A program made the translations under genes and the position numbers. From Candidatus Azambacteria bacterium RBG_16_47_10 (lineage in GTDB: Bacteria; Patescibacteriota; Minisyncoccia; GWC2-36-17; WO2-46-25), in assembly GCA_001773975.1 (NCBI GenBank), contig MEYI01000036.1:13750-37927 (forward strand): a stretch of 24,178 bases of DNA. Reading direction: 5' to 3'. How positions within the stretch are numbered: the stretch's first letter is position 1; each line of letters opens with the position of its first letter. The notes under the pieces are model-generated. The model ran no database searches and had not been told where the DNA came from. It saw only the letters and a list, made by a program, of their open reading frames with translations. Shown in pieces: positions 18,467-24,171 of this stretch.

Positions 18467-18721
18467 TTATATGCGATCAAGATCTCTTTCTTTCAGTGCG
18501 TGCGTAATGATCCGCGATGCTTTGCCGGCAAATGATGCATACGTATTTTCGAGTTCGGCGTTCACAATGGCGGGGTCTCCGGTCACATGAAGCACATCGC
18601 CATTTTCCGCTACGGTAAGACCGGGTATTGTGCGTGCGCGCGAAAGTGCGGCAGTGGCACCCAGGAGCGCCATGTGTTTTTGTACGAGCAATGTGATGAA
18701 ACGAGTATTTGCGGGGATCAT
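18467..18721 (-). CDS. Small conserved-looking protein translationally coupled to the receiver gene
   Basis: 84 aa; TAATG stop/start overlap at 18719-18723; LLGATAALSRARTIPGLTVAENGDV..VTGDP resembles small CPR proteins I associate with signalling loci. Confidence 0.65.
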   Translation of the reverse strand: MIPANTRFITLLVQKHMALLGATAALSRARTIPGLTVAENGDVLHVTGDPAIVNAELENTYASFAGKASRIITHALKERDLDRI

Positions 18722-19140
18722 TATTGTTTTTTATCAAGCGCTTGTGCTATTTTTTGCGCGATGTCATGAAGTGACATTTTTGTTTTTTCAAAAAATGCAT
18801 GCGCTCCCAGCTCCAGTGCGCGGCCTTTATGTTCTGCGCCACTGAGGTTTGTAAACACAAAGACCGTTGCGCGTGCGCAGTGCGGCTCGCGCCGCACTTC
18901 TTCGAGGACGGTAAACCCGTTTTGTTTCGGGAGAAGAATATCAACAACAATGACATCCCATGGTTGTTGATGTATTTGCTGGATCGCCTCTTCCCCATCT
19001 TTTGCCGCCGCCGCCCTAATATCCATGCTGGCGAGTTTTAGCATGAGCGCATCACGCGTTGGTTCGTCGTCTTCGACAATGAGAACGCGTGCGCTGGATG
19101 TTTTTATGGAAGGTGATCGTTTTTGCGGCATATTACGCAA
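18721..19140 (-). CDS. Stand-alone response regulator receiver (REC) protein
   Basis: VLIVEDD, phosphoacceptor VVDILLP, VFTNLS, GAHAFFEK; no output domain. Confidence 0.93.
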   Translation of the reverse strand: MRNMPQKRSPSIKTSSARVLIVEDDEPTRDALMLKLASMDIRAAAAKDGEEAIQQIHQQPWDVIVVDILLPKQNGFTVLEEVRREPHCARATVFVFTNLSGAEHKGRALELGAHAFFEKTKMSLHDIAQKIAQALDKKQ

Positions 19141-20494
19141 GTGGCTTTCCTCTTCTTTTTTCTTGAATTCCTTGATACGGGATAGTGAAATAAAATGTAG
19201 ACCCCTCTCCCTCTTTTGAAGTAAACCACAGTTTTCCGTTCCAAAGGGAAACGAGTGAATTGGCGAGCGAGAGTCCGAGCCCTGTTCCTTCAGGAACTTT
19301 TTTCACGGCGTTGTCGGCGCGGAAAAATTTTTCAAACACCCGCGCGTGTGCCGAAGCGGGAATACCGATGCCGGTATCTGTCACTGATACGGTTGCTTCT
19401 TTCTCTCCGGCGGCAAGTGAAATGGTTGCCGTTCCTTTTTCCCGTGAGTACCGGATCGCATTGCCGACGATATTTGTCATAACTTCGCGAAGCATTGCGG
19501 GATCAATAGAAATGGAGGGAATGGATGGCACGGGTTCATTGAGGATAAGCGCCACCTTGTCTTTTTTCGCGATCGGAGCGAGTTCCTCAATGATGGTTTT
19601 TGTAAAATCGTCGATGGTAATAGGCTGGGGATTTATCTCAAGCGCTCCTCCTTCGACACGTGCAATTGATAAAAGCAGATTAATGGTGTCGCCGAGACGA
19701 CTTGCTCCTCCGGCGATCTGCTGTACGAATTTTGTCTGGGCTTCGTTGAGCGTACCCATCCCCTTTTCCATAAGTAATTCCGTGTACCATCGTACCGCGG
19801 TAAGCGGGGTGCGCAGCTGGTGCGATGCGAGCGACATGAAATTCCTCCGCGCTTCATCAAGCACTTTTTCTTCCGTGGCGTCGCGGAAAACAATGATCAC
19901 GCTTTTTACCCCCTTTTCTTGCACAAGCGGAGAAATGGTGAATGAGACGGGAAATTTTTCCCGCCCGGAAGTTTGGTAATAGAAATTGTCGGTAACTGAT
20001 GCGGTGGTTGTCTTTCCCAACGCGAACGCACGTGTTGCAGGACGGTTTTTGTCAGCAATGAGCTCATCTCCCTGCCATACCATGACGACAGTCCGCATAT
20101 CTTTTCCTTTCGCGTCTTCAGCGCGAAGCCCAAGCAGTGCCGCCGCTTTTGCATTGATCAGCGTGATACGGAATATTTCATCGATAAGCAAAAGGCCTTC
20201 GCCCATTGATGCGATAATAAGGTCAAGGTGACTTCGCTGTTTTTCAAGTTCTTCTTCAAGAGCGCGCGCATCCTCAAGGATATTGAGCATTGCAATCTCA
20301 TTTTCATGCAGCTCCGATTCTTTCGTGTGCCATTGCAGTTCACGCTCGCGCATTTTCTGCTCTAGCAAGCGGTTCTTTACATAGTTGGTCGCTTTAAGAA
20401 GAGTGAGTTTTTCTTCATACGAAAGCACCAACCGTTGTTTTTCGATATCGGTGACCGGTGTTTCCATGGCATGTGGATTTAGATGATCTTGCAT
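19133..20494 (-). CDS. Soluble PAS-domain sensor histidine kinase (start 20494 or 20467)
   Basis: No TM segment; coiled coil with AMLNILED; PAS (IIASMGEGLLLID..INAKAAALLG); H-box ASHQLRTPL; NIVGNAIRYS, DTGIGIP, FFRA, GTGLGL. Confidence 0.95.
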   Translation of the reverse strand: MQDHLNPHAMETPVTDIEKQRLVLSYEEKLTLLKATNYVKNRLLEQKMRERELQWHTKESELHENEIAMLNILEDARALEEELEKQRSHLDLIIASMGEGLLLIDEIFRITLINAKAAALLGLRAEDAKGKDMRTVVMVWQGDELIADKNRPATRAFALGKTTTASVTDNFYYQTSGREKFPVSFTISPLVQEKGVKSVIIVFRDATEEKVLDEARRNFMSLASHQLRTPLTAVRWYTELLMEKGMGTLNEAQTKFVQQIAGGASRLGDTINLLLSIARVEGGALEINPQPITIDDFTKTIIEELAPIAKKDKVALILNEPVPSIPSISIDPAMLREVMTNIVGNAIRYSREKGTATISLAAGEKEATVSVTDTGIGIPASAHARVFEKFFRADNAVKKVPEGTGLGLSLANSLVSLWNGKLWFTSKEGEGSTFYFTIPYQGIQEKRRGKPLA

Positions 20495-20976
20495 TCAATG
20501 AGACACACTTCGTCCCCAAGTCCCCCAATGCATTTTATTTCATCCCCGATTATTTTTTTACCCGGATACAGGTTTTCCAAGGCGCCGGCAACGATACCTG
20601 CCTCGAGTTGGCAAATAGGTTTGCCCAATGGAGGCGTGATGCCGTCGCATGTCATGCATTCGGCGATCGCAAGATGCGCGACATTCGGCGAGGTTACGGA
20701 AAAATTCAGCTTGCCGATCTTGAGCGCAGTGAGTTGACGATGGATATCTTCATGGGTTTTTATCGGAAGCATATTGCCGATATTTTTTCCTAAGAAATAC
20801 GAGATGGTCGGCGTTTCATCACCCAAGATCTTATAGAGACTTACCACACGCAACAAGCGCCACAGCACCACGGGGACATCCGGCCCCACGGTAGGACGCC
20901 GAGGGAGAAGACTGCTGATATCAAGATCTGCCGGATTGCGAGCGAATTCTTTGAAATTATTATTTTCTGGAGGCAT
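20479..20976 (-). CDS. Stand-alone V4R (4-vinyl reductase) domain protein, 4-Cys type
   Basis: ECMTCDG..GKPICQLEAGIVAGAL..DEIKCIGGLGDEVCLIEC matches the V4R pattern C..EAG..AG....E..C...G...C; N-terminal RPTVGPDVPVVLWRL. Confidence 0.85.
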   Translation of the reverse strand: MPPENNNFKEFARNPADLDISSLLPRRPTVGPDVPVVLWRLLRVVSLYKILGDETPTISYFLGKNIGNMLPIKTHEDIHRQLTALKIGKLNFSVTSPNVAHLAIAECMTCDGITPPLGKPICQLEAGIVAGALENLYPGKKIIGDEIKCIGGLGDEVCLIECKII

Positions 20977-20985
20977 AAGAAATGG

Positions 20986-22416
20986 TTAGTGTTTCTGATC
21001 GAGCTTCCCGATCTCTTTTTTTAATTCCACCATTTTCAATTCCCGTCCGACGGTCAGTCGTTTGAATTTCTCCAGCTCTTCTATTTTTTTCTGCAATTCG
21101 ACCGTGCGTTCGGTGGCTGCTTTCTCAAGCGTTTCTTTTATCTTTTCAAGTTCCGCGGTGCGCTCTTTTACCCGCTTTTCAAGTGTTATGTTTACACCTT
21201 TTAATTCCATCTGCGCTTTTTTCAATTCCGTTTCCGATTTTTCAATGCTACTGATCATTGCGTTGAATGTTTCAGCGATCTTCCCGATCTCATCATGTGA
21301 CGAAATAGTCGCGCGAGCGGTGAGGTCGTGCTCTGTGATCTTTTTTGCCGCCTCGCCGATGCTTTCAAAATTTCGTAAAAGCATAGAATTTAGAAGAAGT
21401 GTTCCGAGCGCGCCCACGATGATCGCAATAATGCTGCTGATAAAAAAGCGGAATTCAAACTGTTTAAGCGGCATCATGATCTCATCTCGTTCCGCTTCCA
21501 CGATCAAAATGGCATTATCGCGGTGGAGGCACATGGAAGCGCCGATCACCGGGATGTTTCGATAATTGAGATATGTTCCGGAGATCTCCCTGTTTTCATC
21601 AAAACACTTTTTGATCGGATCGGTATCGATGTGCAGCTTTAAAATCGCATCAGAAACAAAGCGTGATGGCGTAATACGAAGACGATCTTTATTTACCACA
21701 TACACCTCCGCGGTTTTATAATGTTCAAATAGCGCTCGGCCCGAGGGAGCTCCCTCACCCAGTTGCAGTGAGCCGTTAAGGAGATTGCCAAGGTCGTTCG
21801 TGTTTGTGAAGTGCAAAAGCATGACAGCATCCAACGGCGTTGTCTTTTTTGTTTTCTCATCCTGAATAAAAAGCCGGGATACCACATGGATCATAGGATC
21901 CATACCCTCGTCCTCTTCAAATACAAGATTAGTAAGAAATGCCGTGGGAGAAAGAGATGTGATCGCCTCGCTGAATCGATGCGCTTGAAATTCCTCTTCC
22001 TCCTCCTTTTCATTGAGCCCCAATCTGTTTTCTTGGGACGATGCGACGATGATGCCGTTGCGATCGAGGATATCAATAATGCTTATCGTCGGATCGTACG
22101 GTAATTTTTTATGAACAAAATAATCGGTGAGCTGGTTGCGCAGCGCAGTGCGTTCTTCTCCTTCGGGAAGCGCGATGAGCCGAGCTGTTGTTGTGCGAAT
22201 ATATCCGTCTGAGCTCCAGTCAACGGTGCGCGTTTGCATTGAATTAAAAAACGAGTAGTATGCTCCTTCGCTTGTTTCCGCGATGTCGCGGAAATTGTCG
22301 GCCGCCTGTTTTTCAAAATACGCGCCAAAATAACTATGGAAATAAAACAAAACGCTTCCCATCAGCGCAATGATGATGCCGATAAAAAGAAACGAAAACT
22401 TTGTTTTGAATTTCAT
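20986..22416 (-). CDS. Membrane sensor (extracytoplasmic Cache-like domain + HAMP + S-helix) lacking a catalytic output domain
   Basis: TM1 at the N-terminus, about 290-aa extracytoplasmic region, TM2, HAMP (DLTARATISSHDEIGKIAETFNAMI), VKERTAEL/TERTVEL, ending ELEKFKRLTVGRELKMVELKKEIGKL. Confidence 0.9.
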   Translation of the reverse strand: MKFKTKFSFLFIGIIIALMGSVLFYFHSYFGAYFEKQAADNFRDIAETSEGAYYSFFNSMQTRTVDWSSDGYIRTTTARLIALPEGEERTALRNQLTDYFVHKKLPYDPTISIIDILDRNGIIVASSQENRLGLNEKEEEEEFQAHRFSEAITSLSPTAFLTNLVFEEDEGMDPMIHVVSRLFIQDEKTKKTTPLDAVMLLHFTNTNDLGNLLNGSLQLGEGAPSGRALFEHYKTAEVYVVNKDRLRITPSRFVSDAILKLHIDTDPIKKCFDENREISGTYLNYRNIPVIGASMCLHRDNAILIVEAERDEIMMPLKQFEFRFFISSIIAIIVGALGTLLLNSMLLRNFESIGEAAKKITEHDLTARATISSHDEIGKIAETFNAMISSIEKSETELKKAQMELKGVNITLEKRVKERTAELEKIKETLEKAATERTVELQKKIEELEKFKRLTVGRELKMVELKKEIGKLDQKH

Positions 22417-22422
22417 ACGCTA

Positions 22423-24171
22423 TTATTGTATCACGGGCTCTGATGTTTGCACACTTTTTGGATGAGCTGCCGATGCAAGCGGAAGAGAGAAATAAAAGGT
22501 CGTTCCCCTTCCCTCTGCCGATTCGAAACGGAGCTTACCGCCGGATGCTTCCGCGAGCTCTTTGGAAATATACAGGCCGAGACCGGTACCCTCCATTTTT
22601 GTGATATTGTCGGCGCGGAAGAATTTTTCAAATATCCTGTTTTTTTGAAATTCAGGAATGCCGTAGCCGTTGTCTGCAATGGTAAGAAGAGCGTTCTCGT
22701 TTGCAAGCGAAAGCGTCAGTGTGATCTTCCCTTCCTCCGGCGTGTATTTTGATGCGTTTGTCAGCAGGTTTTGAAGCACCTGCCAAATAAGTTTCGGGTC
22801 GGCACTGACGCGCGGGAATGAATCGGGTCTTATAAATTCAAATTTTTGCTTTCGTTTTACGAAATTTTGCTCCACTTCAGGAAGCATGCTCTTAATAAAT
22901 TCGATGATGTTCGTCGGTGTCGGTTGGTTCTGCATCTTCCCCGCCTCAATGCGCGATACGTCCAGAAGGTCGTTGACCAACGTGATGATGCGTTCGTTGG
23001 AATTGTAAACATCAAGTAAAACGCCGCGTTGTTTTTCCGGCAGTTCCCCGAGATCGTTATTAAGCAGCATTTCCATAAACCACTTCATGGATGATAGCGG
23101 CGTGCGCAATTGATGCGACGTGATGGAAATGAATTCCGTTTTCATGCGGTCAACTTCTTTTTCTTGTGTGATATCGGAGAATACGAATGTGGTGCCGATG
23201 ACAGCTCCCTGTCCGTCATGGACAGGGTTCCCCATGATCTTGTAAATTCCGCCGTGTGTTTCCAATTCGGATAAGAGTTGTGGTTTTTGTGAACGGATGA
23301 TCTGTTCCGCGGCGCTGCGGAAATCAAGCTTGCCGTAGAGCGCTTGTACGATGTCGAGCATCGATACGGTTTCTTTTCCCGTGAGCCCGAGAATTTCGCG
23401 CGCTTTCTTGTTTATGATCATGATCTCCTGTTTTGCGTTCACCATGATCAGTCCTTCGCTGATCGACGCGAGCATGGAATTCGTTTTATTTTTCTCTTCT
23501 AAAAAAAGGCGTTGTATGCGAGAAACAACTTCCCCCGCTTCTTCGGCGACCGCATACAATACGCCGATCGCCGCCTCAGTGTAATAGTGCGGTTTTGTCG
23601 AGGCGGCCGTAATAAGTCCCGCTAATTTTTTATCGACAAATACCGGAACACTAAAAAACGAGCGTACCGGCTCCCGAGCATCTTCATCGTATGCAAGACC
23701 GAAGCACAGCGAACGCATCTGCTCCTCGCGTATCGGCGCGCCGGTAAGTGTGGCAAGGGCATCCATCATTTTTTTCTTCGCATTCTCCGCGAACGCCTTG
23801 TTTGCCGCGGCGCCGAGATGACATCGAAAGAATACTTCGCCATTTTCCCCGAAGGTAATATATGAAAGAGCGTTATATGCAACTATGCGATTGAGCGATT
23901 CCGCGATGATCTGCACCGCCTCTTGTTCATCAAGCGACACACTGATGCGTTCAAAAATTTCTTTGAGCACCGCGGCGCGATATGTTTTGTGCGCGATCTG
24001 CCGGTCATCGGATGAAAGACGATGCGCTATCTCGGTGAGAGCACTGCTTTCGTTGTCTGCCGATGCAAGTACCGCGGCATATTTTTTTCGTACCAAGCCA
24101 TCGGCCATCGTTTCAAAAGAGTGTGCCCGCTGGAGTATGGCAAACAGCGTGCGGAAGGAAAGCGTAAACAT
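22423..24171 (-). CDS. GAF-PAS sensor histidine kinase (may extend past the window end)
   Basis: GAF-like region (RSFFSVPVFVDKKLAGLITAAS..YTE), PAS (MLASISEGLIMVN), H-box TSHQLRTPL, NLLTNASKY, DNGYGIP, GTGLGL; the frame stays open to base 24178. Confidence 0.95.
   Translation of the reverse strand: MFTLSFRTLFAILQRAHSFETMADGLVRKKYAAVLASADNESSALTEIAHRLSSDDRQIAHKTYRAAVLKEIFERISVSLDEQEAVQIIAESLNRIVAYNALSYITFGENGEVFFRCHLGAAANKAFAENAKKKMMDALATLTGAPIREEQMRSLCFGLAYDEDAREPVRSFFSVPVFVDKKLAGLITAASTKPHYYTEAAIGVLYAVAEEAGEVVSRIQRLFLEEKNKTNSMLASISEGLIMVNAKQEIMIINKKAREILGLTGKETVSMLDIVQALYGKLDFRSAAEQIIRSQKPQLLSELETHGGIYKIMGNPVHDGQGAVIGTTFVFSDITQEKEVDRMKTEFISITSHQLRTPLSSMKWFMEMLLNNDLGELPEKQRGVLLDVYNSNERIITLVNDLLDVSRIEAGKMQNQPTPTNIIEFIKSMLPEVEQNFVKRKQKFEFIRPDSFPRVSADPKLIWQVLQNLLTNASKYTPEEGKITLTLSLANENALLTIADNGYGIPEFQKNRIFEKFFRADNITKMEGTGLGLYISKELAEASGGKLRFESAEGRGTTFYFSLPLASAAHPKSVQTSEPVIQ
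22425..22433 (-). promoter_or_regulatory. Extended -10 (TGATACAAT) overlapping the kinase stop codon
   Basis: 8 nt upstream of ATG 22416. Confidence 0.45.

Follow-up and report, generated by a model that had tools for sequence, protein, structure and literature searches.

A conserved C-terminal helix of kinase-less sensors in bacteria and archaea and a candidate docking helix in separately encoded histidine kinases

Histidine kinases that lack a sensor of their own and work under stand-alone sensors encoded in the same cistron are established for H-NOX/HqsK and NosP/VpsS. In these pairs sensor and kinase are separate, often co-cistronic proteins, and the sensor controls autophosphorylation (PMC6769237). 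Output-less sensor proteins as such have long been a puzzle for annotation. Here we analyze one of them, a receptor from Candidatus Azambacteria bacterium RBG_16_47_10, which is encoded in a stretch of 24,178 nucleotides (GenBank assembly GCA_001773975.1, contig MEYI01000036.1, positions 13,750 to 37,927 of the forward strand). The whole of this stretch is referred to as the window, and positions are counted from its first letter. The receptor ends in a conserved helical block, termed the tail, which is linked by gene neighborhood to a second short helix, termed NILED, in the N-terminal part of histidine kinases. We propose with a probability of about 0.6 that the tail docks the receptor dimer onto the NILED helix of a separately encoded kinase.

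In dimeric receptors, the HAMP domain relays signals through four helices, two from each protomer. The docking domains of polyketide and non-ribosomal peptide synthases are matched short helices that connect the C-terminus of one protein with the N-terminus of the next and specify non-covalent assembly. By definition, the signaling helix (S-helix) extends over about 40 residues in heptads and bears the ERT signature at positions c-d-e, the arginine being placed at 'd'; it was described as lying between two domains, and a terminal form was not described (Anantharaman, Balaji and Aravind 2006, PMC1592074).

The receptor gene and its elements are located as follows:

20986..22416, minus strand: receptor gene, 476 amino acids (open reading frame (ORF) and translation)
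21241..21390, minus strand: HAMP domain, residues 343-392 (Pfam PF00672, E 1.6e-10)
21103..21165, minus strand: two S-helix ERT signatures, E418-R419-T420 at 21157-21165 and E436-R437-T438 at 21103-21111
21001..21108, minus strand: conserved tail block, residues 437-472 (RTVELQKKIEELEKFKRLTVGRELKMVELKKEIGKL), from per-column conservation in 309 distinct tails
21019-21051, minus strand: tail core V456-G457-R458-E459-L460-K461-M462-V463-E464-L465-K466, with G457 at 21046-21048
20986..20988, minus strand: TAA stop of the receptor, 19 residues past G457, identical in the orthologue and conserved in position in the family

From the N- to the C-terminus, the receptor comprises a first transmembrane helix, a double-Cache (tandem PDC) extracytoplasmic domain, a second transmembrane helix, the HAMP domain, an S-helix coiled coil and the conserved tail. 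HAMP was the sole Pfam match, HisKA, HATPase, MCPsignal and cyclase domains all remaining unmatched at E<=1, and the protein thus has no enzymatic output domain recognizable by Pfam. In an AlphaFold2 model calculated with 13 relatives as input (mean predicted local distance difference test score 75.7), an N-terminal membrane helix leads into two alpha/beta modules, another membrane helix and HAMP come next, and a single uninterrupted helix spans residues 376-475. Foldseek related the extracytoplasmic part to the double-Cache sensor domains of DctB, PctA, Mlp24 and KinD (E 1e-7 to 1e-4). The C-terminus reads EELEKFKRLTVGRELKMVELKKEIGKLDQKH or, in longer stretches, KERTAELEKIKETLEKAATERTVELQKKIEELEKFKRLTVGRELKMVELKKEIGKLDQKH and RVKERTAELEKIKETLEKAATERTVELQKKIEELEKFKRLTVGRELKMVELKKEIGKLDQKH, each followed by TAA; the span 20986-21130 comprises the last 47 codons of the gene and the stop. 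A preliminary description of this DNA, made from the letters alone, had stated that the receptor ends after two S-helix motifs and before the rest of the dimerization and histidine phosphotransfer (DHp) and catalytic and ATP-binding (CA) domains. Both statements are borne out, as the translation places ERT at residues 418-420 and 436-438, and neither a second helix nor HisKA/HATPase is present according to Pfam. The protein is a Cache-HAMP receptor in which no further domain follows the coiled coil. Its classification as a methyl-accepting chemotaxis protein was considered and rejected because MCPsignal is not matched and the chain ends 84 residues past HAMP.

The tail is a large, conserved C-terminal module on output-less sensors of bacteria and archaea. 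A word-indexed search with receptor residues 425-476 yielded 69 proteins, all of which carry the motif 15-51 residues from their end. HAMP, dCache, PAS, GAF, flavodoxin-like or CHASE4 domains are found in their N-terminal parts, and HisKA/HATPase in none of the 69. A profile of 52 positions was then built from 62 tails (alignment A1) and searched exhaustively against 1.84 billion representatives. At a cutoff of E<=1e-3 it matched 15,657 representative clusters. The stricter E<=1e-10 retained 2,132, which is the safer family size because the weaker matches probably include generic S-helices; in almost all of the best 150 clusters the match is C-terminal. The exact word GRELKMVE is encoded at 388 loci in species-representative genomes, and the 80 of these that were retrieved belong to Patescibacteria, DPANN archaea, Thermoplasmata, Methanosarcinales, Geobacter, Desulfobulbales, Thermodesulfovibrio, Bacteroidetes, Thermoguttaceae and others. 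The word and genome searches also bore out the statement of the preliminary description that similar RELKMxELK tails exist in other proteins of the Candidate Phyla Radiation (CPR). The terminal position is strict: the tail glycine lies 11-44 residues before the stop in 109 of 109 ORFs from 84 loci, and a median of 5 residues is left after the profile match in 344 tail domains, only 10 of which are internal, mostly in proteins that have a terminal copy as well. With its core at residues 456-466 of 476, the window receptor scores 73 bits with the tail hidden Markov model (HMM). Neither Pfam-A nor NCBIfam contains a model for the tail or the NILED motif, no PDB chain matched the tail profile or NILED at E<=10, and literature searches of 8.4 million papers with the motif strings and the concept returned no description of either.

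The consensus of the tail is ..ERTkELq.KIeELEKF.kLtVGRELKMvELKkEI..L. When 13 full-length relatives with 22-99% identity are compared, 11 of the 16 invariant columns fall into V456-K466, and clustering in this segment is also seen among the full-length relatives of 22-40% identity; no other region of the receptor is conserved as strongly as the tail. The receptor orthologue in locus L088 (79% identity) likewise has 476 residues, resides in the same operon and stops at the same residue. Between the two genes, the ratio of nonsynonymous to synonymous substitution rates (dN/dS) drops from 0.088 over the full length to 0.047 in residues 446-476 and further to 0.021 in residues 446-470, values that are approximate since dS is saturated in this comparison. 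Together, conservation, low dN/dS and a constant stop speak for selection and against decay: the tail is a helix under purifying selection, not the remnant of a decayed kinase. The checks proposed in the preliminary description point the same way. The tail is kept among homologues, these do not run on into HisKA/HATPase, and both dN/dS (0.047 in the tail, 0.088 in the gene) and the constancy of the stop (109/109 ORFs) favor selection.

Heptad analysis of the 309 tails revealed an a/d register that continues without a break from the S-helix to the end of the receptor. Counted from the glycine, the a/d positions are V-23, R-20, L-16, K/R-13, L-9, F-6 and T/A-2 on the N-terminal side and R+1, M+5, L+8, I+12, L+15 and L+19 on the C-terminal side. 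R437 of the second ERT precedes the tail residue R458 by exactly 21 residues, i.e., three heptads, and both arginines occupy position 'd'. Further conserved hydrophobic residues lie off the a/d positions, namely L-3 (g), V-1 (b), L+3 (f) and V/I+6 (b), and in a two-stranded coil these four would form an exposed hydrophobic stripe beside the invariant G-R-E. Because the register is unbroken and G-R-E follows E-R-T after 21 residues, the tail is better read as a specialized terminal S-helix unit. It shares with the described S-helix the heptad coiled coil with ERT after HAMP or PAS; the receptor contains two ERT copies, and the tail stays in the same a/d register. Unlike an S-helix between two domains, however, the receptor helix ends the chain, with the next gene starting 9 nt past the stop, and its near-invariant signature F..LtVGRELKMvELK.EI..L is absent from the description of the S-helix.

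The second element resides in a soluble kinase encoded about 0.5 kb downstream of the receptor, with a single V4R gene in between:

19133..20494, minus strand: PAS kinase, soluble, 453 amino acids, with an N-terminal coiled coil that contains one NILED unit (Pfam; PAS 89-208, HisKA 215-283, HATPase 331-441)
20234..20317, minus strand: NILED unit of the PAS kinase, residues 60-87 (SELHENEIAMLNILEDARALEEELEKQR), directly ahead of PAS (HMM)

In a narrower delimitation the window unit comprises residues 61-86; its core reads IAMLNILEDA and is identical in the L088 orthologue. In the N-termini of the kinases downstream of tail genes the consensus is kEL..tQ.A-L-L-N-I-L-E-D..Ea, with A-3 conserved in 93% of 75 pattern-selected instances and with N12 and D16 invariant in alignment A2, the first row of which is the window's own unit. 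The core is hydrophobic at g, a, b, d and e around the invariant asparagine, followed by E-D. The shortest NILED kinases consist of 2-5 units with an exact period of 21 residues that run into DHp and CA. Since these minimal kinases are made up of NILED units, DHp and CA, no other part could receive input. As an observation in its own right, four to five tandem units leading straight into DHp are encoded at L004 7011-8060 (= L024 6181-7230), L053 6175-7194 and L063 6195-7247.

Gene order ties the two elements together. In every context inspected, a histidine kinase gene follows the tail gene, either directly or past small sensor genes. The first downstream kinase carries a NILED-type unit N-terminal of the H-box at 46 of 51 loci (42 by pattern and four NIV[ED]D variants), and 24 of 30 kinase genes that start <=100 nt past the stop of the tail gene encode NILED by pattern, as compared to 1 of 5 upstream kinases. 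HMM searches of the 676-kb genome that contains the window identified a single tail ORF and a single NILED ORF, which share one operon. The GAF-PAS kinase upstream of the receptor gave no NILED match at E<=10; of the two neighboring kinases that had initially been named as candidate partners, the downstream PAS kinase thus has the helix and the upstream one does not. Among 301 Patescibacteria genomes, 29 contain both motifs, 8 the tail only, 2 NILED only and 262 neither, i.e., the tail occurs in 37 and NILED in 31 genomes, for which 3.8 shared genomes are expected by chance. The corresponding numbers for 151 genomes of the archaeal phylum that holds locus L035 are 9, 8, 0 and 134, with the tail in 17 genomes, NILED in 9, and the tail present in all 9 NILED genomes. 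In nearly all genomes with both, NILED is encoded on the same strand within about 3 kb downstream of the tail. The gene adjacency and the recurrence of the pattern in archaea as well as in bacteria hold regardless of nominal p-values, and we consider it very likely that tail and NILED are functionally coupled.

Many sensors may be connected to a single kinase. The clearest case among those seen is Geobacter sp. OR-1 (genome G302, contig C48, 29-51 kb; locus L069), where seven tail genes on one strand within 16 kb are followed by a single NILED match in an open frame of 849 residues. A fixed stoichiometry of one NILED repeat per tailed sensor was ruled out by the counts in genomes G303, G301 and G302. 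At loci L022, L049, L051 and L072 from Geobacter, Desulfobulbales and Thermodesulfovibrio, the kinases carry the NIV[ED]D variant and read A-L-M-N-I-V-[ED]-D-L-N.KT. The tails beside them have phenylalanine at position -2 in nine of nine cases (..LFVGRELKM..), while T, A, V or S is found there elsewhere. This pairing may reflect compensatory co-variation or a single transferred lineage.

Rosetta-stone fusions place both helices side by side in one polypeptide. In P0216 (L086 655-2118), a transmembrane segment, a coiled coil, LTVERELRLAELKKQI, a proline-rich loop of 25 residues, DAMLNILEDARE, PAS, HisKA and HATPase follow each other on a single chain. Such fusions are rare, as a search for further ones recovered P0216 alone. 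In P0124, an internal tail is followed about 27 residues further on by LAMINLLEDAQ, after which PAS domains lead up to another tail at the C-terminus. In P0073, P0082 and P0151, an internal tail precedes an inserted domain, assigned to PocR by Pfam in P0082; next come an A-A-[LM]-x-L-A-E-D helix whose likeness to NILED was judged by eye, PAS domains and again a second, terminal tail; the pair of tail and NILED-like helix seems able to bracket an inserted sensor domain. The reverse order is realized in L017 7908-8660 and P0211, where NILED is followed by a tail exactly 28 residues (four heptads) further on in one continuous helix. Both may act as adaptors to which one tailed sensor docks and which in turn expose a tail of their own.

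In the mechanism that we propose, the tail would be the output end of a kinase-less sensor, formed by a specialized terminal stretch of the signaling-helix coiled coil. The receptor dimer and the kinase dimer would probably pack tail and NILED into a short heteromeric helical bundle, in which the NILED helix, placed directly ahead of PAS or DHp, would take over the position of a covalently attached signaling helix. A conformational change in Cache and HAMP could thus reach the kinase without a covalent link. In the window, the receptor (20986-22416) would act on the PAS kinase (19133-20494), which would phosphorylate the stand-alone receiver (18721-19140), and the V4R protein may serve as an additional small-molecule or redox co-sensor. 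We infer the direct contact between tail and NILED, the geometry of the bundle and the direction of the signal; direct contact is somewhat more likely than not.

Several observations weigh against docking of the tail onto NILED. Genomes within one phylum are related, and Fisher p-values for co-occurrence overstate their independence. NILED was not matched in 8 of the 37 Patescibacteria and 8 of the 17 archaeal genomes that bear tails, which, given the short NILED model and the many incomplete genomes, does not amount to clear absence. The numbers of NILED repeats and tailed sensors are unequal, with ratios of 5:1 in G303, 2:1 in G301 and one NILED match to eight tails in G302, and the co-variation at position -2 may go back to a single lineage event. 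Structure prediction for a complex of two copies each of receptor residues 396-476 and kinase residues 36-100 gave an ipSAE of 0.36 against 0.01 for the best control. This is graded as weak support for the pairing: the mark is reached by 51 of 78 solved complexes and by 2 of 108 mismatched pairs. True complexes seldom score <=0.60, and a pass in this range is wrong more often than right unless the pairing is likely beforehand. The confident part of the predicted interface involves receptor residues 397-451, i.e., the S-helix up to EELEK, and kinase residues 52-98 including NILED, and leaves out the GRELKM core (457-472). As the score is weak and the interface lacks the tail core, the prediction was not counted for the specific contact.

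In principle, the tail could be a docking helix with a different target, such as the PAS or CA domain of the kinase, the receiver or one of the small sensors (V4R in the window), while NILED would co-occur with it only since both motifs mark one lineage of two-component operons. The position of the tail core outside the confident predicted interface would agree with this. So would the small sensor genes (V4R-like, FIST, hemerythrin, ODP, solute-binding) that often lie between tail gene and kinase, V4R being the immediate downstream neighbor of the receptor both in the window and in the two closest operons. However, the intervening genes vary from locus to locus, searches of 84 other loci gave no significant match to the window V4R, and 30 downstream kinase genes begin <=100 nt past the stop of the tail gene. 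Minimal kinases offer NILED units, DHp and CA only, and fusions that lead from tail to NILED through a short loop exist, such that we regard a different target as unlikely. It is still more improbable that the tail is a mere homodimerization cap and that the receptor signals by another surface or functions as a scaffold or decoy. The ends of coiled coils often require a cap, the a/d heptads continue to the C-terminus and the model shows a single long helix, but the near-invariance of the polar, non-core residues G, R, E and K across bacteria and archaea exceeds the needs of a cap, and the additional conserved hydrophobic side chains point outward. Capping would also leave unexplained why the tail is so closely linked to NILED kinases in gene order and across genomes.

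The preliminary description had interpreted the tail as a pseudo-DHp, that is, as a conserved, non-phosphorylatable helix for docking or dimerization. Conservation without phosphorylatable residue, the absence of decay and docking as the best role stand; the relationship to DHp finds no support. If the tail descended from DHp helix 1 of HisKA (PF00512), with Arg or Gly replacing the phospho-acceptor His, it might form a DHp-like heterodimer directly with the DHp of the true kinase. Both are helical, follow an S-helix and have the 'ELE.F' junction at the end of the incoming coiled coil. By eye, ELEKF-KRLTVGRELKM resembles ELEAF-SYTVSHDLRAP of kinases encoded beside many tails; ELE.F, T-V and [DE]-L-[RK] can be matched if one gap of a single residue is allowed, and the 'L...ELE.F' junction does align in hhalign. 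The arginine that had been put in place of the histidine nevertheless gets there only by this one-residue indel relative to the shared ELE.F, which shifts the helical register; without a gap, the histidine is matched by G457 and not by R458. Profile similarity to DHp helix 1 had been set beforehand as the test, and none was found across the H-box. The receptor has no HisKA match at E<=1, whereas both neighboring kinases are matched at 1e-15 to 1e-17 (Pfam), the tail profile retrieved no DHp chain from the PDB at E<=10, and hhalign gave a probability of 0.4% against 63 DHp domains from the fetched loci. Against 10 kinases of the ELE.F.Y.VSHDL type the value was 1.1%, and the 12 aligned columns reach no further than the Phe that precedes the H-box. 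The tail lacks both a phospho-acceptor His and a CA domain, and with 19 residues past the glycine it has no second helix either. With three heptads between E-R-T and G-R-E and both arginines at 'd', the tail is better read as a modified S-helix unit, and the co-varying element of the partner kinases is NILED, not DHp. The shared ELE.F is the usual coiled-coil junction, common ancestry of the tail with a truncated kinase is conceivable but favored by no computed result, and we rate the pseudo-DHp reading as very unlikely. Docking of the tail onto NILED remains the preferred reading.

The remaining genes of the operon are:

22423..24171, minus strand: GAF-PAS-HisKA-HATPase kinase, 582 amino acids, upstream of the receptor and not the predicted docking partner (Pfam)
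20479..20976, minus strand: stand-alone V4R/DUF2507 protein, 165 amino acids, starting 9 nt past the receptor stop (Pfam)
18721..19140, minus strand: stand-alone receiver (response regulator), 139 amino acids, overlapping the end of the kinase gene (Pfam PF00072)
18467-18721, minus strand: ORF of 84 amino acids, overlapping the receiver stop

On the minus strand, the GAF-PAS kinase gene is followed after a 6-nt gap by the receptor gene, after a 9-nt gap by the V4R gene, with a 16-nt overlap by the PAS kinase gene, with an 8-nt overlap by the receiver gene and then by the 84-aa ORF. The operon is conserved in two relatives, and both of these closest operons include V4R. They also have an 82-aa ORF at the matching position (L088 8708-8956; contig of P0004), and because the position is kept in both, the 84-aa ORF is probably a real gene. 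A scan of the operon for promoters and terminators gave counts at chance level.

With phmmer and jackhmmer, no significant relative of the window V4R was detected among the ORFs of the 84 loci. V4R as a family-wide conserved partner was thus ruled out, as the intervening genes vary among loci. Elsewhere, the slot holds V4R-like proteins of about 200 residues, FIST, hemerythrin, ODP, solute-binding proteins or iron-containing alcohol dehydrogenase (Fe-ADH), which give the impression of small co-sensors that can replace one another. In CPR loci, a family of about 200 residues that ends in C..KGD.YHEY..W is repeatedly encoded between tail genes and NILED kinase (L001 6328-6924, 7510-8115 and 8149-8799; L011 6188-6796; L018 6216-6833; L023 2505-3113 and 3150-3749; L029 3384-5879 with four copies; L040 6160-7405). 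Its members have no Pfam match or only a faint one to V4R/TRAPP, and the family has the look of divergent small sensors of the V4R type that go with tail/NILED systems. At L002 6444-7829 (= L064), also from CPR, a hemerythrin and an ODP-type di-iron (Lactamase_B/ODP) protein are encoded between tail gene and NILED kinase, which suggests that oxygen or iron sensing feeds the same kinase.

As far as found, tail and NILED constitute an undescribed variant of split sensor/kinase signaling with a very wide distribution. H-NOX/HqsK and NosP/VpsS differ in that their contacts are globular and specific for each family, without a shared docking motif, whereas tail and NILED form a short, portable helix pair that is common to many input domains including membrane receptors. 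The helix-loop-helix layout of the fusions, in which a loop separates tail and NILED, recalls by analogy the AS1-connector-AS2 arrangement of HAMP (PF00672). The tail itself lies outside the HAMP profile, which matches residues 343-392 only, and tail and NILED normally reside on different proteins. Synthase docking domains are unrelated in sequence and process, and by comparison tail and NILED would also have to transmit a conformational signal.

The odds are about even that tail and NILED represent a general, portable plug-and-socket by which many separate sensors feed into one kinase and which is daisy-chained by NILED-tail adaptors. If true, this would be an unrecognized layer of two-component architecture that could be exploited to reconnect sensors with kinases as desired, and it would show that a conformational signal can cross a non-covalent helical junction. 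Synthetic biology would gain a compact connector of about 35 plus 21 residues for the coupling of arbitrary sensors and kinases. The tail would predict which kinase is fed and would thereby give a pathway to thousands of output-less sensors, including much of the sparse signaling repertoire of CPR bacteria and DPANN archaea. For the window, the prediction is that the signal would run from the Cache/HAMP receptor to the PAS kinase and on to the lone receiver, bypassing the upstream GAF-PAS kinase.

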